This document shows positions 33,227 to 48,170 of a DNA stretch of 64,000 nucleotides, one piece after another (within the stretch, counting starts at the first letter, position 1; each line of letters begins with the position of its first letter). Origin of the DNA: an uncultured delta proteobacterium (GTDB taxonomy: Bacteria > Myxococcota_A > Polyangia > Palsa-1104); contig CAWAWS010000039.1 in assembly GCA_963785725.1 (NCBI GenBank), forward strand, positions 704,001 through 768,000. Direction: 5' to 3'. Made by a program: the position numbers and the translations under genes. A model generated the notes under the pieces. That model saw only the letters and a list, made by a program, of their open reading frames with translations, was not told the DNA's origin and did no database searches.

Positions 33227-34738
33227 TCAGCGCGAGCAGCAGAGGATCGCGTGCAGCTGGCCACTGCCATAGTGGCTCACGCCGGCGATGTAGCGACCGG
33301 GGCCGCATTCTTCCTTGGTGTTGCCGTAATCCCAATCGCCGGTGGCGGCTTGGGCGCCGGGCTCGCGGTCGTCTCCGTTGTCGTTGACGAGCGTCGCGCA
33401 GCTCGATTGCGTCACGGCTCCCGGGCAGCACAAGAGATCGCGTACGCCGCCGTTCGTCGGGTCGGCGGAGACCCCGGCCACGAATTCGTTGGCCGCGCAC
33501 TGTCCCTTGTAGAATCCGACGTCCCAATCGCTGAGCACGCCGCTGTCGTTGTGCTCGAAGCTCACGTCGTGGCAGCCGGTCGTGCCGTCGTGCGCCAAGC
33601 CGGACCCGTCTTTGCTGCACAGTAAGCCGCGCACGTCGACTGTCGCGGGATTATCTGACAGTCCAATCGCCGTTTGATTGGCGCCGCACTCGCCTTTGTA
33701 CGCGCCCGGCGCCCAATCACCGGTGGTCGTCACGCGGCGCGCGTCGCCGGCGGCGAAGACGAGCGCGCCCGGATTGAGCGTCGCGCTGTTCTCGTTATAG
33801 ATGAGCGACGCGATCCCCGAATCGACGAAATCCATGGCCACGACGCCGTATCGACCCGCCGGGCTGCTCGTGAAGTAGCTCGACAGATCCGGATCGATCG
33901 TATCGGAGACGATCGGGATATTCGGGATGCTGAGGAAGCTCTCGTATCCGCTCGTGTAGTTTAGATAGAAGTTGGTCGAGCTTCCCGAATAGGCGCTATT
34001 GAAGAGCGTCGTAATCTGATTCCACTTGGTGCTGTCGCTGCTGACGACATAGTCGTCTTGAACATCGAGGATGCCGCTGACGAAGCTGGCGTTGTCGGCC
34101 CAATTCGTCGCGTCGATGCCTTTCGGTAAGCTGCTCGCGCCGAAGCGGCGGAGGAGTGTAATCTTGCCTCTGCCCGTGCGGATCGTGGGAACGCTCGAGT
34201 CCAGGTTCCATAAGCCCGGATTCTGCGCGACATAAGAGTCGAAGGTCTGCTCGAACGTCTGCGTATCTCCGGAGGCGTTGTACTCCTCCTTTACGCTCAT
34301 GACGATCGCTTCCGATGGATTGGCGGCCAAGAACGCGGTCACGGCATTGAGGACGTCATTGAAGTTGGCGTTCTGATAGACGCTGCCGTGATGCATCACG
34401 AACGCGTTATTGAGGTGGCGGCAGCGCATGTCCAGGTAACGAACACCGGCGGCGAGCTGGTCGGCGAGCGCCAAGTCTTGGCAGATCGCCGTGCCCCAAA
34501 CCGGCTCGTAGCGCGCCATCGAGTCGTGGGTGCCGGGGATCGAAAGCTGCGTGAGCGAGAGATCGGGGTCGAGCGCGGACATCCAATTGCTTCCGCTGAT
34601 GCCGCTCAGCTGCGCGGCGCTCTCGGACGCTTGATTGCCGGCCTGACTGACGCATCCCAAGGTCCCGCAGCCGACGCTCAGGAGAAATGCCGTACCAATC
34701 GTCAGCGACGCAGTGGCCGTTCGTCGTTCGTTTGTCAT
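33227..34738 (-). CDS. Phosphatidylinositol-specific phospholipase C with C-terminal Cys-rich repeats
   Basis: LSIPGTHDS, QLAAGVRYLDMR, HHG, PSEAIVMSVKEE and RGKITLLRRF; three DW...KxxC repeats. Confidence 0.88.
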   Translation of the reverse strand: MTNERRTATASLTIGTAFLLSVGCGTLGCVSQAGNQASESAAQLSGISGSNWMSALDPDLSLTQLSIPGTHDSMARYEPVWGTAICQDLALADQLAAGVRYLDMRCRHLNNAFVMHHGSVYQNANFNDVLNAVTAFLAANPSEAIVMSVKEEYNASGDTQTFEQTFDSYVAQNPGLWNLDSSVPTIRTGRGKITLLRRFGASSLPKGIDATNWADNASFVSGILDVQDDYVVSSDSTKWNQITTLFNSAYSGSSTNFYLNYTSGYESFLSIPNIPIVSDTIDPDLSSYFTSSPAGRYGVVAMDFVDSGIASLIYNENSATLNPGALVFAAGDARRVTTTGDWAPGAYKGECGANQTAIGLSDNPATVDVRGLLCSKDGSGLAHDGTTGCHDVSFEHNDSGVLSDWDVGFYKGQCAANEFVAGVSADPTNGGVRDLLCCPGAVTQSSCATLVNDNGDDREPGAQAATGDWDYGNTKEECGPGRYIAGVSHYGSGQLHAILCCSR

Positions 34739-34780
34739 TCGCTTCGAGCCCTTTTTACGTAGCGATACATTCAGGCGACG

Positions 34781-34801
34781 CGACTCCCACAATGGGAGTC
34801 G
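34781..34801. promoter_or_regulatory. Perfect inverted repeat upstream of the PI-PLC gene
   Basis: CGACTCCCA-CAA-TGGGAGTCG. Confidence 0.4.
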
Positions 34802-39718: not shown

Positions 39719-41017
39719 ATGAAGCCACTCGCTGCTTCGCCAGTCGCCGATAGGCGAGCCCACTATTCGCTCGCGCAACGGGTCACGCTGCAGGTCTATC
39801 GCGTCGTCGCCCTGTCATTGGGAATCTGGCTACTCCTCGGACCGCTGCCGTCGATCGCACAAAAGCTTCCCGCGGCCGCGGCCGATGGTGGCGTCGGCTG
39901 GTATGCCGCGCGACAGCTGAAAGCCGGCCACGATCCCTGCGACCCGGTCGAGCTGCAAAAGGCCGGGATTACCGGGCTCGGCCAGCCACCGACGGTCGCC
40001 ATCTGGTTTCTGCCGTTCGCCTCGCTCACCGCCGAGCAGATGGGAACGGACCTCAGGCTGCTCGCCATCTTCGCGCTGATTGCTCATTTGACAGTGCTGG
40101 CATTCGAGCTCGGCGCGATCACGCCCATTGCATTGACGGTTCTCACGTTCGGCTTTTTATTCTCGCGGCAATTCTTCCTCTATCACCTCGACGTCGGTCA
40201 GATATCCGAGCTCATCGCCTGTTGGATCGTGGCGACCTGGCTCTTCTTGCGTCGCGATGAAGATATCGCGGCCGGCGTCTGCCTCGGCTTGGCCTGCACG
40301 ATGAAGCTCTATCCCGCCGTGATCGCGCTCTTCTTCATCGCGAGCGGACGATGGCGCGCGCTCGCCGCCAGTGTCGTCACTTACGCAGCCGTGATCTTGG
40401 CGGTCACCGTGCGCTGGGGATGGCGCTTATGGCCGCGCTTCATCGCCTCGGATAAGGACCTCGTCAACTTCTGGGTCTCGAGCGTCCACAATGGAAGTCT
40501 TTACGGAATACTGACGAGAGCATTGCAGCCACTCGGCGGGAGACAGCCGCCGAGCCACACTGCAACTGCCTTGTTCCTCGTCATTGCGTCATTACTCATC
40601 GCCTTCTTCTTCGTCTTTTCGCGCAGGACCGCCCGCGATCGCGACGACTGGGAGATCTCATTCGCGTTCGTGGCCGTCCTCGGCCCTTTTCTGCACCCGG
40701 TGGCGTGGGAGCACTACGCTGTCCTTTGGATCTTGCCGATCGGAATTGCAATCACGCGAATGGGTCGAATGGCTCGATGGCGCAATAGGCTCGTGACCGG
40801 CTTCGTCCTGTTCTTGGCCTGTTACGCGATGTCGCTGCCAATGCACTATCGATCGCTGTTCATGCGGAGCTGGGTGCTGAGCCCAATGAATCGTTTCGGG
40901 CTGCGCTTCTATGATGTCGCTAATTGGCTTCCGGCCGTCTTGTTGCTGGCCCTATTCGCGGTGCTCCTGGTAAGCAGTGACAAGAGCTGGTGTAGAAGGA
41001 CGCGCTCGCTCGCATGA
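39719..41017 (+). CDS. Glycosyltransferase family 87 (DUF2029) membrane protein
   Basis: PPTVA...PF, GQISEL, KLYPA and WEHY; multiple TMs. Confidence 0.8.
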   Translation: MKPLAASPVADRRAHYSLAQRVTLQVYRVVALSLGIWLLLGPLPSIAQKLPAAAADGGVGWYAARQLKAGHDPCDPVELQKAGITGLGQPPTVAIWFLPFASLTAEQMGTDLRLLAIFALIAHLTVLAFELGAITPIALTVLTFGFLFSRQFFLYHLDVGQISELIACWIVATWLFLRRDEDIAAGVCLGLACTMKLYPAVIALFFIASGRWRALAASVVTYAAVILAVTVRWGWRLWPRFIASDKDLVNFWVSSVHNGSLYGILTRALQPLGGRQPPSHTATALFLVIASLLIAFFFVFSRRTARDRDDWEISFAFVAVLGPFLHPVAWEHYAVLWILPIGIAITRMGRMARWRNRLVTGFVLFLACYAMSLPMHYRSLFMRSWVLSPMNRFGLRFYDVANWLPAVLLLALFAVLLVSSDKSWCRRTRSLA

Positions 41018-41072: not shown

Positions 41073-42449
41073 CTAGGCCACCGCGACCTGCCGCGCCTGC
41101 ACCGGCGCTTCACTCGGCCGCGACTCCGCCGCGCCTGCACCGGCCAAGCCGGCCACGCGCCACGCGACCGCGAGCCAGACGACGCTGAGCAGCGTGTTGA
41201 CCACCGTGAGCGCGCCCGCGCCCAGGTGCAACACGCCGACGCCGCCCGCGACCACCGCCGTCGCCAGCACGTCGCCGGTGCGCACGACGAACGTGTCCAT
41301 CGCCTGCTTGGCGCGATATTTCTCCTCGCGCGTCGTCGGCAGCCACAGCATCGCGCGGCCGGTGTTCATGACCGAGTAGTCGCCGGCGTTCTCCGCCGTC
41401 TTGAGCCAGCGCACGACGCTGAAGCCGACGCCGAGCATCATCGTGCCGTAGACGCCGAACGCCACCAGCGGCAGGAACAGGAGCACGCCGCGCATGCCGA
41501 AGCGCTTGGCCAGCCGCGACACGATCAACGCCTGCATCAGCGCAGCGACGACGTTGACCCAAAAGAAGAAGTCGCCGTAGAAGTGGCCGATGAACGCCGA
41601 GGCGCTCGTCGCGTGGCCGGCGGCGACGGCGACGGCGGCCGCGCGCACGACGTTCTTGCTGAGGATGTACTCGCCGACGGTGTTGACGATGTTGAGCAGC
41701 ACGAGCAGGAGCGCGACCAAGCGTAGATAGCGGCTGCGCGCGATGAGCTGGAAGCCGCCGGCGCCGTTTGCCAGCGGCGCTTCGTCGTCGCGCTTGGCGG
41801 CGCTCGCCGTCGCCGGCACGCGGCTGAGCGCGAGTACGCTGGCGCCATGCACGACCAAGAGCAGCGACGCCAGCTGCATCATCATCGCCGGCGAGACGCC
41901 GCGCGCGAACAGCGCTTCGGCGATGGCCGCGCCCACCGGGCTGCCGAGCGTCGCGCCGAAGGCGACGATGGGGAACAGCCGCTCGCCGGCGTCGCGCGCG
42001 TACAGATCGTTGGCCAGCGACCAAAACTGCGCGATGACCGACAGGCTGAAGATGCCGACCCAGACGAAGAAGGCGATGCCGACGTAGTGGACGCCAAAGT
42101 GCAGCGCCAGCGAGAACAGCTGCAAGTTGACGAAGAAGAAGCCGGTCAAGCCGAGGATCAAGCCACGCCGGCCGACCTGCTTGGTCAGCCAGCCGTACGC
42201 GGGCACGAAGCCGATGAGCAAGAGCGCCTGCAAACCGGCGGCGTAGCTCTTGACCTCGGCGCCGCCCGACGTGAGCACGAGCGGCTCGCGCACGGTCTTC
42301 AAGAGGTAATAAGCGACCATCAGCGTCAACAGGCTCACCATCATGCTGACGACGCGTGCCCCTTCGCCGGCGCGCACCTCGCTGAAGAGCCGCAGCGTTC
42401 GGTCGAGCATCGTTCCCGGCATGGCTCGCGTCTCGATTTCGGTCTTCAT
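41073..42449 (-). CDS. Npt1/Npt2-type (AAA/TLC family) nucleotide translocase-like MFS transporter
   Basis: YYLLKTVRE, FFVWVGIFSL, QFWSLANDLY..GERLFP and EKYRAK..DTF..R.GD; about 12 TMs. Confidence 0.8.
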   Translation of the reverse strand: MKTEIETRAMPGTMLDRTLRLFSEVRAGEGARVVSMMVSLLTLMVAYYLLKTVREPLVLTSGGAEVKSYAAGLQALLLIGFVPAYGWLTKQVGRRGLILGLTGFFFVNLQLFSLALHFGVHYVGIAFFVWVGIFSLSVIAQFWSLANDLYARDAGERLFPIVAFGATLGSPVGAAIAEALFARGVSPAMMMQLASLLLVVHGASVLALSRVPATASAAKRDDEAPLANGAGGFQLIARSRYLRLVALLLVLLNIVNTVGEYILSKNVVRAAAVAVAAGHATSASAFIGHFYGDFFFWVNVVAALMQALIVSRLAKRFGMRGVLLFLPLVAFGVYGTMMLGVGFSVVRWLKTAENAGDYSVMNTGRAMLWLPTTREEKYRAKQAMDTFVVRTGDVLATAVVAGGVGVLHLGAGALTVVNTLLSVVWLAVAWRVAGLAGAGAAESRPSEAPVQARQVAVA

Positions 42450-42461
42450 GACGATCGCTCC

Positions 42462-43169
42462 TTAGAACGTGACGGCCAGCGACGTCGCGCTGACGTGGAC
42501 GGCGGGTGTGGTGGCGGCGAGCTGCCGCGCCGGCTGCGCGGCGGCGCCGAGCGCGCCGAAGCGGCGGCGGTATTCACGCAGGTCGCTCTTGGCCTGCCAC
42601 GGCTGCGTCCAAATCTGCAGCTCACCGACGGCGACCGCGATGCCGGTCGACTGCGCGGCGCGCTTCCAGTCGCCGGCGATCCAGATCGCCGCGCCGCCGA
42701 CCAGGTTCATGAGCAGCGAGAAGACGTGCGGCTGCCAGGCGTAGCGGAGGTTGGCTTCGTCGGCGTTGCGGCGCAGCAGCGTCTCGGCCAGGTCGAGGCG
42801 CGCCAAGCTGCCGTCGGCTTCGCCGGCGCGGTCGAGCTCGTGCGCGCCGCGTGACGCCTTCAGCGGAAACAGGCCCATCGTGATGCCGCCGATGAGCGAC
42901 TTGCCGATGCCGACGGCGGCCTCGGTGTCGGCGGCCTTGGTGCGCGCGTGCGCCAGCTGATAGCTGCCGTAGCCGAGCCCGCCGACGTAGACGATCGACC
43001 AGCCCGCTTCCCAGGTGCGCGCTTGCACGGCTTCGGCTTTGAGCCGCGCGGCGATGAAGCGCAGCCGTTCGTCGACGTGCAGGTCGTCCGCGGTCGCGGC
43101 TTCGTCTTGCGCCAACGCCGGCGCCGGCAGCGCCAACAAGAGCGACAGCGTGAGCAGGAGCCGTTTCAC
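42462..43169 (-). CDS. Hypothetical exported/membrane protein
   Basis: GTG start overlapping the Omp85 stop; signal peptide; C-terminal SLAVTF. Confidence 0.7.
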   Translation of the reverse strand: MKRLLLTLSLLLALPAPALAQDEAATADDLHVDERLRFIAARLKAEAVQARTWEAGWSIVYVGGLGYGSYQLAHARTKAADTEAAVGIGKSLIGGITMGLFPLKASRGAHELDRAGEADGSLARLDLAETLLRRNADEANLRYAWQPHVFSLLMNLVGGAAIWIAGDWKRAAQSTGIAVAVGELQIWTQPWQAKSDLREYRRRFGALGAAAQPARQLAATTPAVHVSATSLAVTF

Positions 43170-44551
43170 GACGGGTTCCCGTTGCCGGCGAAGACGAGCC
43201 GCACGCCGCCGCCGCCCGTGGCGCCGAAGCCGTAAGCGAACTGGATGCGCATCGTGTACTTGTTGGCCGAGTGCATGCGGAAGCCGAAGCCGACGTCGGG
43301 CTTCAAGTCGTGCACGGTGAAGTCGGCGAACTGCGGCTTGAAGACGCCGCCGTAATCGGCGAAGAGCGAGCCGTCCATCCACATCCAGATCGGCCAGCGG
43401 TACTCGATGGTACCAAGCAGCGACGAGTCGTCGCGGAAGCGGGCGCGCCGAAAGCCGCGCAGGTCGTCGATGCCGCCCAGCTGCACCAGCTCCGAGAACG
43501 GGATGGTCGAGCCGCCGAGCGCGATCTCGTCCTCGGCGGAGATGCCGATGTAGAGGCTGCGATGGCGGAAGAGCTCGAACGAGCGGCCGATGTGACCGTG
43601 CAGGCGCAAGTAGCTCGAGTCGTCGCTGCCGATGCCGTGCGTGTAGTCGACGCGCGCGCCCACGAGCAGTCCCGATGACAGCTCGTCGGCGCGGCTGTCG
43701 ACGTTGATGGCGACGTGCTCGCGCACGAATTGCGTGCCGCTCGAGAAGCCGGGCACGAGCCAATCGTCGACCACGCCGACGCAGTGGCCAGCGGCGCGCA
43801 AGCAGTAGACCGAGCCGATCGACTGATCGCCGTCGTATTCGCTGCCGTTGTTGTAGCGCACGAAGTCGACGGCGACGCCGGCTTCGATCTGCAGCGCCTT
43901 GACCGGCTTCCACGTCAGCGCGACGTCCGAGTCGACGCGATCGAAGCCGTAGCGGCTGAAGGGCAGCGGCACGTGCATGCCGATGCCGGTGTAGAGCTCG
44001 TCGTTGCGGCGCAGGTAGTCGGCGTGCACGGTCAGCTGCAGCTGATGCGGCAGCGGGCGCGACAGGCGGGCGTCGTTGGCGAGCACGTGCGGGCCGCCGA
44101 ACGCCGACGACAGCTGCGAGCGCATGCCCGCCGGCAGCCGATTGTCGAACAGGAGGAGCCCGAAGGACGGCGTGAACGACGCCTCATAATTGACGACGGG
44201 ACGAACGCCGATGAGCCCGTCATCCGAGGTCAGCGCCGCCGTGATGTGCTGCTGCACGTGATCGCGCTCGTTCCACTCCATCGCCGGCTTCGCCACCGCG
44301 CCCAGGCCGGCGATGAACAGCCTGGGCGGCGTCAACAGCGCGCGCGCGAGGGCGCGGCCCGGCTGTTTGCGCGGCGGCTGCGCCGGACGGCCGTCATAGC
44401 GCTCGCCGTGCAGGACGTCGGGCGCGGTCGGCGCGCTGGCCGCGTTGGGCGCGCCCGGTTCGGTCGACGCGTCGGGCGCACCGGGAGCGTCCGACTCGGT
44501 CGCCTGAGCGACTAACGGGAGCAGCCACACGGCCAGGATTGCGATACGCAT
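43166..44551 (-). CDS. Omp85/BamA-TamA family beta-barrel protein lacking obvious POTRA domains
   Basis: LGG..DLRGF..ARF, IEYRWPI, LFADYG and DVGFGFR. Confidence 0.85.
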   Translation of the reverse strand: MRIAILAVWLLPLVAQATESDAPGAPDASTEPGAPNAASAPTAPDVLHGERYDGRPAQPPRKQPGRALARALLTPPRLFIAGLGAVAKPAMEWNERDHVQQHITAALTSDDGLIGVRPVVNYEASFTPSFGLLLFDNRLPAGMRSQLSSAFGGPHVLANDARLSRPLPHQLQLTVHADYLRRNDELYTGIGMHVPLPFSRYGFDRVDSDVALTWKPVKALQIEAGVAVDFVRYNNGSEYDGDQSIGSVYCLRAAGHCVGVVDDWLVPGFSSGTQFVREHVAINVDSRADELSSGLLVGARVDYTHGIGSDDSSYLRLHGHIGRSFELFRHRSLYIGISAEDEIALGGSTIPFSELVQLGGIDDLRGFRRARFRDDSSLLGTIEYRWPIWMWMDGSLFADYGGVFKPQFADFTVHDLKPDVGFGFRMHSANKYTMRIQFAYGFGATGGGGVRLVFAGNGNPS

Positions 44552-44708
44552 GAAACCGCACTCAGCACCTTCCATGCCGTTCGCGAAAACGCAGCGATTT
44601 ACCGGCGATGCCGCTTTGACGAGGCTCGCCGGCGGCGCGTCTGCGCAATTCGCCGACGCTGCGCTGTCGGTTTTGTCGACAGGTGCGCTCGAAGTCCGCG
44701 TCCCGCCG

Positions 44709-44726
44709 TTGGCGCGCCCGCTGCAA
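44709..44726 (+). promoter_or_regulatory. Sigma54-like promoter
   Basis: TTGGCGCGCCCGCTGCAA (GG-N10-GC). Confidence 0.45.
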
Positions 44727-44739
44727 TGACCGCCCAACC

Positions 44740-46392
44740 ATGCGAGCTCGAACGCCGATCGTGATGGTCCTCATTGCCGGCTGCGCGACGACGACTCCGC
44801 CGGCGGACAGCGTCCGCTTCGTCGACCGCCCGATCTTGTGGCGCGATCCCGACGGGCAGCCGTCAGGCGTGCCGGCGCAGCACCAGGCCGGCATTCAATG
44901 GACGGGCATGCGCGACGCCGCCATCCTGCCGGCGGAGCGCGCCTTATCGCTCGATTACGGCGTGGAGTCGGTGAACGTCAACGCGCTCGACGAGGTGCCC
45001 GACTCCAATTGGTACGTCGATCGGCGGCGCGCCGGCTTGGAAGGCGAGGACCGCGTCCGCCCGCGCACCTTCAGCGCCGACGAGATGACGCGCGGCGACT
45101 TCGGCGACGATCCGGGCCCGCAATTGCCCATCACCATCATCAAAGGCAAGGCGATCGGCTCGACGCCCGGCCTCGTCGGCATCGACGCGCGCGGCAAGCG
45201 CTACATGTTGAAGCTCGATCCGCCGGGCTGGCTCGGCATGAACACGTCGACCGAGGTCGTGGCGACGCGGCTGGCGTGGGCGGCCGGCTGGCTGGTGCCG
45301 GCCGAGATGATCATCGACGTTCGGCCCGAGGACCTGCGCCTCGATCCCAAGGCGAAGACCAAGGACGAGTGGGATCACGACATCCCGCTGACGGCGGAGA
45401 TGCTGGCCAAGCTCATGGCGCGCACGCCGCGCGAGGCCGACGGCCGCGTGCGCATCTGCGCCAGCCGCTGGCTGGCCGGCCGCGCGCTCGGCTCGTGGGC
45501 CTATTACGGCAAGCGCAGCGACGACGCCAACGATCGCATCGCGCACGAGAACCGCCGCGACGTGCGCGGCTTCGGCGTGTTCGCCGCCTGGGTCAACGAC
45601 ATCGACACCATGGAGAACAACACCATGGACGCGTACATCGGCAAGGACGGCAGCGGCTACGTCGTCCATTATCAGCAGGACGTCGGCGGCTCGTTCGGCC
45701 AGTTCGCCGCCATTCCCCTCGAAGTGTGGATGGGCGACGAGACCTACTTCATGCCGGGCCGAATCTTCGAGTCCTTCTTGACGCTCGGCTTCATGCAGCG
45801 CCATTGGGAGGGCAGCGCGTTGGCGGCGCGGCGCGAGCAGCAGATGCGCGACTACCACGAGCTCGGCTACTTCGACGACGAGACCTTCGACGCGCGCTCG
45901 TGGCATCCGATCTTGGACAACCCGGCGTTCGTGCGGCAGACGGCGCGCGACCGCTATTGGGGCGCGAAGGTCGTGGCGGCGTTCACGCAAGAGGAGGTGC
46001 GCGCGGCGGTGGCGCTCGGCCATTACCAGCCGGCGACGGAGCAGCGGCTGTTCCAGATCTTGTGGACGCGGCGCGAGCGCATCTTGCGCGCCTTCTTCAG
46101 CGACGTGGCGCCGCTCGACTATTTCCGCTTTGCCGGCCACACGCTCTGCTACGACGATCTGTGGCTGCAGTCGGCGCTCGGTCAGCCGGAGGCGACGCGC
46201 TACTTCGTGGTCGAGAACGGCGCGCGGCGGACGATCGCCGGCGGCTGCATCGCCACCGACGCGCAGCCCGGCTACCACATCGTGCAGCTGGGCGCGCAGC
46301 GCGATGGCGTGAAGATCGAGCACGTGCCGACCGTGAAGGTGCACTTCGTGGCGACGGCAGACGGCGCGCACGTCATCGGCATCGAACGCTAA
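44740..46392 (+). CDS. Lipoprotein with atypical (HipA/PI3K-like) kinase motifs
   Basis: Lipobox LIAGC; GSTPG, YMLKLD, STEVVATRL, WVNDIDTMENN and QDVGGSFG. Confidence 0.7.
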   Translation: MRARTPIVMVLIAGCATTTPPADSVRFVDRPILWRDPDGQPSGVPAQHQAGIQWTGMRDAAILPAERALSLDYGVESVNVNALDEVPDSNWYVDRRRAGLEGEDRVRPRTFSADEMTRGDFGDDPGPQLPITIIKGKAIGSTPGLVGIDARGKRYMLKLDPPGWLGMNTSTEVVATRLAWAAGWLVPAEMIIDVRPEDLRLDPKAKTKDEWDHDIPLTAEMLAKLMARTPREADGRVRICASRWLAGRALGSWAYYGKRSDDANDRIAHENRRDVRGFGVFAAWVNDIDTMENNTMDAYIGKDGSGYVVHYQQDVGGSFGQFAAIPLEVWMGDETYFMPGRIFESFLTLGFMQRHWEGSALAARREQQMRDYHELGYFDDETFDARSWHPILDNPAFVRQTARDRYWGAKVVAAFTQEEVRAAVALGHYQPATEQRLFQILWTRRERILRAFFSDVAPLDYFRFAGHTLCYDDLWLQSALGQPEATRYFVVENGARRTIAGGCIATDAQPGYHIVQLGAQRDGVKIEHVPTVKVHFVATADGAHVIGIER

Positions 46393-46400
46393 ATGTAACG

Positions 46401-48170
46401 TCAGGTGCGCGGGGGCGGCAGCGGCGTCGGCGTCAGTGTCGGCCTAGACCGCGCGTGCTCGGCCACCAGCGCCTCGATCGCGTCGGCGGTGTCGAGCGCC
46501 AAGGCGCGCTGGGCGAGCCGCTCCGCGTCGTCGAGGCGCGCGCTGCGGATGGCGCTCTTGACCTCGAGCAGCTGGGTGGGCGCGACGCTGAAGCGGCGCA
46601 AGCCGAGCCCCAGCAAGAGCGCGACGTTCTCGGCGAGCCCGGCCATCTCGCCGCAGATGGTGAGCTCGCGCCGCGCCGTTCGCGCGGCGTCGGTGACGGT
46701 GTGAATGAGCTGCAGCACCGACGGATGGAGCGGCTGGTAATAGCCGGCGACGCGCTCGTCTTCGCGGTCGATGGCCAGCAGATATTGCGTCAGATCGTTG
46801 GTGCCGAGGCTGAAGAAGTCGACCTCGCGGGCCAGCGCCGGCACCATCAACGCCGCCGACGGCACCTCGATCATCGCGCCCACCGGCGTGTCGCCGTCGA
46901 AGCGGAGGCCGCGCGCACGCAGCTCCGACTGCACGTCGCGAATGACGGCGCGCGTCCGCCGAATGTCCTCGACCCCGCCGACGACCGGCACGAGGATCGA
47001 CACCGGATGTTGCGCGCTGACGCGTAAGAAGGCGGCCAGCTGCGTGCGCAGAATCGCCGGATGCTCGAGCAGGAGCCGAATTCCGCGCTGCGACAGCGAC
47101 GGATTGCGCGCGTAGGGCAGCGGCAAGGTCGGCAGCTCCTTGTCGCCGCCGACGTCGAGCAGCCGCAGCGTCAGCGGACGCGGCGCGAAGCGGGCCGCCG
47201 CCCGCTCGAGGAATTCGTACTGCTCGTCCTCGGTCGGCAGGCTCGGGCGGATGAAGAAGCCGAACTCGGTACGATAGAGGCCGATGCCCTCGGCGTGATA
47301 GCGGACGGCGGCCTCGGTGTCGGCGAAGGCGTTGACGTTGGCGAGCAAGGGCACGCGGACGCCGTCGGCAGTCACGCTCGGCAGGTCGAGGATCTGCTGC
47401 AGCTCGTGCTGATGGGCGCGAATGCTCGCTTCGACGCGTTCGTACTCGCGCGCGATCGTGGCGTCGGGGTTGACGACGACGAGGCCGGCGATGCCGTCGA
47501 CGATCACCGAGTCGCCGGTCTTGATCTGCTCGGTGGCGCCGATGATGCCGGCGACGGCCGTGAGCCCGCGCGCGCGCGCCAGGATCGACGCGTGCGACGA
47601 GCGGCCGCCGCGCTCGGTGACCAGCCCGCGCACGCGGTCGAGCTCGAGGCGCGCGCTCACCGACGGCAGCAGCTCGTCGGCGATGAGCACCGCGCCTTCG
47701 GGGATGACCGACTCGCCGCTCGATTGGCCGACGACGAGCACCGTCAACAGCCGCTTGCCGATGTCGCGGATGTCGGCGGCGCGCTCGCGCAGCACCGGGT
47801 CGGCGAAGCCGGTGAACGTGAGCGTCAGCTCGTCGAGCGCCTCCGTCAGCGCGGCCTCGAGGTTCAGCCGCTGCTCGCGCACGCGGGCGCGCACCGGATC
47901 GACGAGCTGCGAGCTGCGCACGAGCAGCGCCTGCGCGGCGAAGATCTCCGCCTCCAACGGCAGCCGGTCGATCAGCGAGCGTCGTAGCTCCGCCAGCTCG
48001 GCCTCGGCGCGCTCCAACGCCGCGTCGAACCGCGCCAGCTCGCCCGCGATCTCGTCGTCGCCGATCTCGCGACGCGGGACGGCGTGATGGTGCGACGCGA
48101 CGAGCACGAACGCGGTGCCGCGCGCCACGCCCGGCGAAACAGCGACCCCTTTGAGCAGCAGACCGGGCAT
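46401..48170 (-). CDS. ptsI: Phosphoenolpyruvate-protein phosphotransferase (PTS enzyme I)
   Basis: GVAVSPG, GGRSSHASILAR, GIGLYRTEF, DVGGDK, MIEVP, GTNDLTQY and CGEMA. Confidence 0.92.
   Translation of the reverse strand: MPGLLLKGVAVSPGVARGTAFVLVASHHHAVPRREIGDDEIAGELARFDAALERAEAELAELRRSLIDRLPLEAEIFAAQALLVRSSQLVDPVRARVREQRLNLEAALTEALDELTLTFTGFADPVLRERAADIRDIGKRLLTVLVVGQSSGESVIPEGAVLIADELLPSVSARLELDRVRGLVTERGGRSSHASILARARGLTAVAGIIGATEQIKTGDSVIVDGIAGLVVVNPDATIAREYERVEASIRAHQHELQQILDLPSVTADGVRVPLLANVNAFADTEAAVRYHAEGIGLYRTEFGFFIRPSLPTEDEQYEFLERAAARFAPRPLTLRLLDVGGDKELPTLPLPYARNPSLSQRGIRLLLEHPAILRTQLAAFLRVSAQHPVSILVPVVGGVEDIRRTRAVIRDVQSELRARGLRFDGDTPVGAMIEVPSAALMVPALAREVDFFSLGTNDLTQYLLAIDREDERVAGYYQPLHPSVLQLIHTVTDAARTARRELTICGEMAGLAENVALLLGLGLRRFSVAPTQLLEVKSAIRSARLDDAERLAQRALALDTADAIEALVAEHARSRPTLTPTPLPPPRT

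Follow-up and report, generated by a model that had tools for sequence, protein, structure and literature searches.

A kinase-fold lipoprotein encoded with a POTRA-less Omp85 barrel, and an accessory NTT-type carrier, in an uncultured delta proteobacterium and across bacterial phyla

INTRODUCTION

The Fam20 kinases work outside the cytosol and need imported ATP, which a carrier of the endoplasmic reticulum and Golgi supplies to them along the secretory pathway. Here we analyze a locus (positions 41073 to 46392) of a 64,000-nucleotide stretch of DNA, hereafter the window, from an uncultured delta proteobacterium (GTDB lineage Myxococcota_A; Polyangia; Palsa-1104; assembly GCA_963785725.1, contig CAWAWS010000039.1, positions 704,001 to 768,000 of the forward strand), which encodes a lipoprotein with the predicted fold of such kinases, an Omp85 barrel without POTRA domains, a small signal-peptide protein, and a carrier of the NTT family. 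The best structural matches of the lipoprotein are Fam20C and Fam20A/B (PDB 4kqa, 5xom, 5yh0), from which it differs by an identity of only about 10%, by being a bacterial lipoprotein with an Fn3-like tail, and by having a barrel partner and a carrier of the NTT family. The fold and the D-x4-N/DFG-type catalytic layout are common to CtkA, HipA/HipT, CotH, MavQ, and PI4KIIa as well, whereas no sequence match to PI3/4K-like kinases was obtained in Pfam or the PDB. We know of no PI3/4K-like atypical kinase that acts as an outer membrane-docked periplasmic enzyme.

On the barrel side, the closest described proteins are the noNterm and "Metallo" subfamilies of Omp85 (PMC4104836; Leptospira paralogues in PMC11358297), which are likewise 16-stranded and POTRA-less and carry the lid-lock motifs. 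The noNterm barrels resemble the Metallo barrels (Heinz and Lithgow 2014, PMC4104836) and are described as poorly understood (PMC11358297), and the word kinase does not occur in the main text of either paper. Unlike the published noNterm type, the window barrel comes with a kinase partner of its own, and in the Metallo-type proteins that we retrieved a kinase-like domain lies between the phosphoesterase and the barrel. TpsB/TpsA and the type Vd protein PlpD also combine an Omp85-family barrel with an enzyme, but the system described here has no POTRA domain, a lipid-anchored partner, and a predicted periplasmic docking. NTT-HEAT and cNMP-binding genes such as those of PMC5381601 join the kinase cluster in relatives; the main text of that study (Major et al. 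2017) gives neither Omp85 or kinase neighbors nor a function for the NTT carriers of free-living bacteria. A recent preprint (bioRxiv 10.64898/2026.09.18.752743) deals with a PAP2-linked, lipid-kinase-like family that is cytoplasmic, and its accessible text contains neither "BamA" nor "metallophos". A literature search whose coverage did not extend to most subscription papers or to the NTT structure papers returned no description of a kinase-Omp85-carrier module, in line with an earlier note on this DNA, made from the sequence alone, whose author knew of no such system. 

RESULTS

The kinase-fold lipoprotein is paired with an Omp85 barrel across phyla

The lipoprotein gene (44740-46392, plus strand; 550 amino acids, lipobox LIAG-C15) is divergent from the Omp85 gene (43166-44551, minus strand; 461 amino acids, PF01103 E 5.8e-12), with an intergenic gap of 188 bp. 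The latter is tightly packed with the genes for the signal-peptide protein (42462-43169, minus strand; 235 amino acids) and the single-domain NTT/TLC carrier (41073-42449, minus strand; 458 amino acids, PF03219 E 3.6e-11), with a 4-bp overlap or a 12-bp gap between neighbors, and the four open reading frames lie where the earlier note had placed them. The names attached to close homologues indicate Polyangia/Myxococcota. A scan of GTDB genomes by DNA motif gave at least 121 matches; 41 of them held less than 700 bp and were left out, and the flanks fetched for the other 80 included one duplicate (L066 of L065), leaving 79 loci. According to their record titles, these loci span Acidobacteriota, Myxococcota, Gemmatimonadota, Latescibacterota, Zixibacteria, Krumholzibacteria, Rhodothermales, Bdellovibrionales, and Eisenbacteria. 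Cultured organisms with the genes include Sorangium sp. So ce1128 (L009) and Paludibaculum fermentans (L020). An Omp85 gene was present in 76 of the 79 loci and lay immediately 5' on the same strand in 74; the divergent layout of the window is a local variant that recurs in two close relatives. In nine genomes found independently by profile search, Omp85 was present at all 10 kinase loci, and in the genome of the window itself the three kinase paralogues (four copies in total) each lie 3' of an Omp85 gene. The co-occurrence tallies overstate the association, because kin genomes are not independent, and the Omp85 and carrier profiles were derived from the same loci in which they were counted, with Pfam confirming representatives. 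Taken together, these results indicate that the kinase-Omp85 unit is real and widespread, and that the NTT carrier is accessory to it.

The three additional pairs of this genome (L005:6811-9824 on contig C15, L006:6858-9805 on C37, and L007:6689-9672 on C22; about 50% identity) have no carrier nearby. A PAP2 gene lies 900 bp 3' of one of them, and one adjoins clpB/dnaJ/lon, as it also does in a relative (L185). Among the genes that recur near the kinase are those for PAP2 phosphatases (11 of 79 loci) and metallophosphoesterases (7 of 80 loci); NTT-HEAT together with cNMP-binding genes also recurs, as do a dual-specificity phosphatase and PPK2. Single metagenomic open reading frames that fuse the kinase to the barrel (P0171, P0115) may be read-through errors.

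The lipoprotein has the predicted fold and the conserved motifs of an atypical kinase

The lipoprotein is one member of an extensive family without annotation, with 2113 representatives at 50% identity, of which 149 were aligned. The segment from the Gly-rich loop (K137-G144) to the β3 lysine K158 and D160 (45148-45219, plus strand) is highly conserved (K137 in 93%, G140 in 97%, G144 in 94%, K158, at base 45211, in 95%, and D160 in 97%), and the αC-type residue E172 is glutamate or aspartate in 85%. The catalytic loop D289..N294 and the DFG-equivalent D314 (45604-45681, plus strand) are kept in 99%, 97%, and 97%, respectively, the last motif having the family consensus HYLIDFG. The β3 lysine, the catalytic aspartate, the Mg-binding asparagine, and the DFG aspartate were assigned by motif order and secondary structure rather than by superposed coordinates, and all of the kinase motifs that had been picked out from the single sequence are present and conserved. 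A family-specific insert, D261-R276 (45520-45567, plus strand), in which D262, D265, H269, R273, and R276 are invariant, may be an anion or substrate site.

The structural model of the lipoprotein was confident (predicted local distance difference test, pLDDT, 94.5; predicted template modeling score, pTM, 0.94) and comprises the Cys15 lipobox, an N-terminal segment at about 25-87 predicted to bind the barrel, the atypical kinase domain at about 116-456, and an Fn3-like C-terminal domain at 457-541 (Z about 7 by VIA-align). Foldseek ranked Fam20C first (E 1e-4), followed by CtkA, Fam20A, actin-fragmin kinase, HipT, and PI4KIIa. By VIA-align the best match was CtkA (Z 14.5, root mean square deviation 3.6, 228 residues aligned), followed by Fam20 (13.5), PI4KIIa (12.4), HipA (11.9), and CotH (11.8), and the 14 kinase rows ranged from Z 9.8 to 14.5 versus at most 7.9 for unrelated rows. 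The two structure searches confirm for the predicted structure a kinase fold of the Fam20C/CtkA/PI4K/HipA type, outside any named family, as the motifs had led the earlier note to suspect. The Pfam search gave no match at all, and so none to the kinase families Fam20C, HipA_C, CotH, and PI3_PI4_kinase, for the window lipoprotein at a threshold of E 0.1 or for four homologues at E 0.05, searches of Pfam, NCBIfam, and the PDB with the lipoprotein sequence returned nothing useful, and the ESM Atlas neighbors reached only 0.77-0.79. Armadillo matches (E 0.02 or worse) were rejected.

The short signal peptide and the lipobox cysteine LIAG-C15 assign the protein, by these features rather than by a dedicated predictor, to the Sec/SPII type. 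A crude script test found a hydrophobic N terminus in 144 and a lipobox-like cysteine in 98 of the 149 homologues. With its catalytic residues in place, the lipoprotein is in our judgment probably an active extracytoplasmic kinase.

Some kinase homologues reach about 950-1000 amino acids by a long C-terminal extension (L032:832-3852, of 1006 amino acids, and L055:7236-10106), for which no Pfam or NCBIfam match and, in the case of L032, no PDB match was found. Weak kinase-profile matches (E about 1e-9) in frames of 350-420 amino acids in genomes G348, G365, and G376 suggest a shorter, more distant kinase-related family in Acidobacteriota.

The kinase is predicted to dock on the periplasmic face of the barrel

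The Omp85 protein was modeled as a 16-stranded barrel with an N-terminal helix and without POTRA domains, and the model matches the barrels of BamA and TamA. It fits the noNterm type by its strand number, its lid-lock motifs, RGF (within LRGF, 364-367) and FxDxG (397-401), and its lack of POTRA domains; the N-terminal helix (66-107) is predicted to bind the kinase. In contrast to the BamA/TamA insertases, it scores 20.8 bits with TIGR03303, versus a cut-off of 297, and a two-partner secretion system would have the two POTRA domains of TpsB and a TPS-domain passenger, neither of which is found here.

The kinase-barrel complex was modeled with a score of 0.63, versus 0.00 for the best of three controls. 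Of 157 solved complexes, 116 reach this value, versus 2 of 215 mismatched pairs, a calibration that is only roughly valid with the alignments used. The runs shared at least 94% of the contacts, with a pLDDT of the partners of at least 86. On the barrel the interface comprises residues 46-101, 328-331, and 384-396, i.e. the N terminus and the turns T5 and T6, and by the general topology rule for such barrels the strand count places it on the periplasmic side. The kinase is therefore predicted to dock at the N-terminal helix and at turns T5/T6, on the periplasmic face, the position held by the POTRA domains in other Omp85 proteins, and the modeling makes a periplasmic kinase-barrel complex probable. 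The predicted docking on this face argues against the barrel as a secretion route for the kinase, which had been entertained in the earlier note.

The NTT-type carrier is enriched at kinase loci but optional

An NTT gene was found within 8 kb in 27 of the 79 kinase loci, and in 17 of the 49 with full flanks, whereas about 1% would be expected by chance given 1-7 NTT genes per genome of 3-9 Mb. In the phylum of the window (121 genomes), nine genomes had a strong kinase match, seven of them with an NTT gene within 6 kb; a close carrier (E <1e-95, with a profile built from the kinase loci) was present in all nine versus 14 of the 112 others. Within the family of the window, the nine genomes (of 14) that have the kinase are also those that have carriers, but of 22 genomes of a sister family that gave no kinase match, 20 have distant carriers. 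A hand count from the tables for Acidobacteriota (121 genomes) gave carriers in 20 of 23 kinase-positive versus 32 of 98 other genomes. On a kinase tree of 68 rows (11 of the 79 kinases were too short), the carrier link was scattered, with 14 changes, at least eight of them forced. One open reading frame (P0158) fuses carrier and kinase. The carrier is, in summary, enriched at kinase loci and optional. The co-occurrence of the three families is supported across phyla, with Omp85 as a near-constant partner, whereas the carrier is not supported as an obligate part. Of the three outcomes that the earlier note had named as refuting its proposal, none of those accessible to the present analysis was observed.

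Three more NTT-family genes of this genome (L157:7334-9316 on C7, L158:7304-8551 on C17, and L159:6824-8590 on C14) are unlinked to the kinase copies, and one of them is followed by HEAT-like and cNMP-binding open reading frames.

The window carrier belongs to the NTT/AAA (TLC) family (PF03219, 43 bits versus a cut-off of 21), and the profile of its family matches CpNTT1 (E 2.5e-45) and AtNTT1 (E 1.8e-38). With one numbering offset (84, by our own count), AtNTT1 residues K155, E245, E385, and K527 correspond to A71, G132, E260, and D393 of the window carrier; E385 we take to be the fourth important residue of AtNTT1. D393 (codon 41271-41273, minus strand), at the position of AtNTT1 K527 and PamNTT1 K446, defines what we call the D-type, and of the 54 single-domain rows aligned, in which the window carrier is counted twice, 41 have aspartate there. 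A smaller, K-type group keeps all four canonical residues, which also checks the residue mapping, and it is present at some kinase loci (e.g. L035, L046, and L086). The positive residues K51, R54, K67, K381, and R390 are conserved. Because three of the four key residues differ, the window carrier does not belong to the canonical, NTT1-type ATP/ADP exchangers, and the earlier assumption of an ordinary ATP/ADP translocase is not supported.

In PamNTT1, the K446E substitution raised the Km of ATP import from 8.6 to 552 μM, i.e. lowered the affinity, and changed that of ADP-in/ATP-out exchange from 1401 to 29 μM, a higher affinity (PMC2606016). The Lys-to-Asp substitution of the window carrier is compatible with a reversed polarity, with salvage of ADP, or with a different substrate. 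ATP export by the window carrier appears a tenable reading, at somewhat less than even prospects.

Carriers also adjoin other exported proteins predicted to use ATP

Fourteen kinase-negative genomes with a close carrier were inspected, and in seven of them an exported predicted ATP user lies beside the carrier. Three of these genomes, from one family, contain NTT-HEAT, a cNMP-binding protein, a K-type NTT, and an exported fusion of 835-906 amino acids of a kinase-motif domain with an Omp85 barrel. In the other four, from four families, the carrier flanks a PPDK_N/PEP-utilizer protein, with a signal peptide-like start as judged by eye, and beta-lactamase-like proteins; in a fifth genome, part of this cluster is present at a contig end. 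The occurrence of carriers beside other exported predicted ATP users suggests that carriers serve such enzymes.

In the four families, the PPDK_N and PEP-utilizer mobile-domain protein (930-1020 amino acids; L133:11039-13996, L136, L137, and L139:1552-4608) and the beta-lactamase-like proteins form a cluster that has a D-type NTT on one side and an NTT-HEAT gene on the other, a candidate for a second exported ATP-dependent system.

A second kinase-like domain stands N-terminal to an Omp85 barrel (L140:6272-8992, L141:8522-11149, L142:8625-11132, and L161-L180), with G56, Q59, R76, K80, D208, D233, and D235 as invariants and a DRH motif in at least 90%. The kinase call for this family is based on its motifs, a CtkA match (E 0.49), one CotH match (E 0.006) among 23 members, and a 44-column match to the first family (E 2.5e-4). 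In Bacteroidota this domain is often located between a metallophosphoesterase and the barrel, the "Metallo-Omp85" architecture. Neighbors at 20 fused kinase-barrel loci were HD-PycTM (16 of 20), SdiA-regulated-like (11 of 20), and cyclase (9 of 20) genes, and also PPK1 and PAP2. One record, P0406, fuses an NTT carrier to the second kinase-like domain.

Several observations weigh against the carrier as the source of ATP for the kinase. It is missing from 52 of the 79 kinase loci (32 of the 49 with full flanks) and from beside all three own-genome paralogues; in Acidobacteriota only 6 of the 23 kinase genomes have it within 10 kb, and in three no carrier was found. The fusion of carrier and kinase in P0158 is a single metagenomic record, which may be a read-through error. 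The window carrier is without equivalents of K155, E245, and K527, and in AtNTT1 the K527E variant bound no ATP and K155E neither nucleotide (PMC3306366); the low Vmax of PamNTT1 K446E was read by its authors as possibly impaired ATP export (PMC2606016). Six of the 14 kinase-negative genomes showed no exported ATP-using neighbor of the close carrier. In the phylum to which G121 belongs (Rhodothermales, assigned here to Bacteroidota), 62 of 151 genomes contain the second kinase-Omp85 family, but carriers were found in 10 of the 151 and together with the fused kinase-barrel in only four, and no carrier was found in the 20 fused loci fetched of the 74 matches listed.

The 235-amino acid protein and flanking features of the locus

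The Pfam search of the 235-amino acid protein returned no family, and it gave no profile match with the PAP2 neighbors. Members of its small family adjoin the carrier in three further genomes, one of which is kinase-negative. The protein may belong with the carrier rather than with the kinase. Its homologues include L129:8314-9003, which adjoins a carrier in a kinase-negative genome (32% identity, E 2e-23), L160:7774-8565, found in a relative next to a distant carrier, and L183:2041-2784, a lone paralogue in the same genome as the window.

A motif resembling a σ54-type -24/-12 promoter lies at 44710-44725 (plus strand), 14 nucleotides before the kinase start; the search pattern, drawn up after the site was seen, gave 167 matches in 8.9 Mb. 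The motif is found in the same place in one orthologue and precedes the carrier in two relatives, and a σ54 activator is encoded near the cluster in two relatives.

Downstream of the kinase, a convergent gene for PtsI (phosphoenolpyruvate-protein phosphotransferase; 46401-48155, minus strand, TIGR01417 E 7e-150) ends 8 bp past the kinase stop, and on the other side a gene for a GT87-family membrane glycosyltransferase (39719-41017, plus strand) converges on the carrier gene in a stretch of locally lower GC content. The PtsI, TetR, and GT87 genes were set aside as parts of the module, being absent among the recurring neighbor families. Farther away, 33227-34792 (minus strand) encodes a secreted protein with a Cys-rich tail, whose N-terminal region we take, by its motifs, to be phosphatidylinositol-specific phospholipase C-like.

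DISCUSSION

The reading that we prefer is a lipid-anchored kinase, docked under the barrel, that phosphorylates an envelope substrate with carrier-supplied nucleotide. The lipoprotein would be exported, anchored in the periplasm, and docked under the POTRA-less Omp85 protein, where it would phosphorylate the substrate with ATP; the neighboring NTT-type carrier would run in the ATP-out/ADP-in direction and would likely supply this ATP, and the phosphate would be removed again by the exported or membrane phosphatases that other genomes encode in the vicinity. The whole chain we put forward tentatively, as falling a little short of an even chance, and the step in which the carrier supplies the nucleotide is to be read with the same reserve as regards both its substrate and its direction. 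As to the acceptor, chances are about balanced that it is an anionic lipid, a glycan, or a small molecule handled at the barrel, which we favor because PAP2 lipid phosphatases recur as neighbors and because the invariant insert is rich in histidine and arginine; a protein acceptor is less favored, although still a serious candidate.

The best-surviving alternative, although on balance improbable, is a self-standing periplasmic phosphotransferase that draws ATP from other routes, such as the outside or leakage, or uses another donor, e.g. polyphosphate, the carrier only salvaging ADP or spent nucleotide or reporting it to the cytoplasm via the NTT-HEAT/cNMP-binding partner. The optional presence of the carrier at kinase loci, the success of the Bacteroidota fused family without it, the aspartate at the K527 position, which favors ADP binding, and the recurrence of PPK1, PPK2, cyclase, and HD-domain neighbors all agree with this scheme. 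So does the periplasm of Escherichia coli, which contains some ATP without a translocase and for which a review reports a measurable pool supplied by an unknown route (PMC7432876), and the premise of the earlier note that the periplasm normally lacks ATP was to that extent too strong. However, exported predicted ATP users of three different kinds are repeatedly found next to carriers, and K-type carriers with all four canonical residues are found at several kinase loci.

A carrier that moves some other nucleotide or cofactor, for instance NAD or a non-adenine nucleotide, which the kinase fold would use in a nonstandard way or sense, we regard as distinctly unlikely. The change of three of the four canonical residues and the unusual invariant insert of the kinase would agree with it, as would the fact that the NTTs of free-living bacteria are uncharacterized and one clade moves NAD (PMC5381601), but the standard Mg-ATP catalytic residues are all at least 95% conserved, and the carrier keeps its five positive residues.

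More doubtful still is a two-partner or type V-like export, in which the barrel would deliver the kinase to the surface, to prey, or to competitors, where ATP exists, and the carrier would take up the released nucleotides. The gene order, with the barrel immediately 5' of the enzyme, does resemble that of two-partner systems, the nearest folds include the secreted or effector kinases CtkA, CotH, and MavQ, and one genome has four paralogues; nevertheless, the barrel is without POTRA domains, most homologues appear to have a lipid anchor by the crude test, docking on the periplasmic face is confidently predicted, and the kinase is highly conserved, unlike polymorphic effectors. A reverse flow, in which the kinase fold would make periplasmic ATP from an outside phosphoryl donor arriving via the barrel and the carrier would import it for energy or phosphate scavenging, is very improbable, since, although characterized NTTs normally import and phosphatase and polyphosphate genes are nearby, the window carrier is without the lysine needed for ATP import preference, and we know of no reverse-running member of this kinase fold.

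Returning to the carrier-fed kinase, the module joins in one testable hypothesis three matters, namely the function of NTTs in free-living bacteria, the role of noNterm Omp85 proteins, and the passage of ATP across the bacterial inner membrane, which is stated as unresolved (PMC7432876). Even if ATP export fails, a conserved kinase bound, as predicted, under an Omp85 barrel is a partnership not found in the literature searched. The wider proposal, that an NTT subfamily of free-living bacteria of several phyla, re-polarized by the D-type exchange of Lys for Asp at the phosphate site, is a dedicated ATP exporter powering a periplasmic phosphorylation network, is speculative and rather unlikely to hold in full. 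If it were true, this network would consist of Omp85-docked kinases of two families, the exported dikinase-like enzyme, and exported phosphatases, and the "Metallo-Omp85" proteins, long known, would represent the form of it in which phosphatase, kinase, and barrel are fused. It would then be a bacterial counterpart of Fam20C signaling in the secretory pathway, and bacteria would run a fueled phosphorylation outside the cytoplasm.

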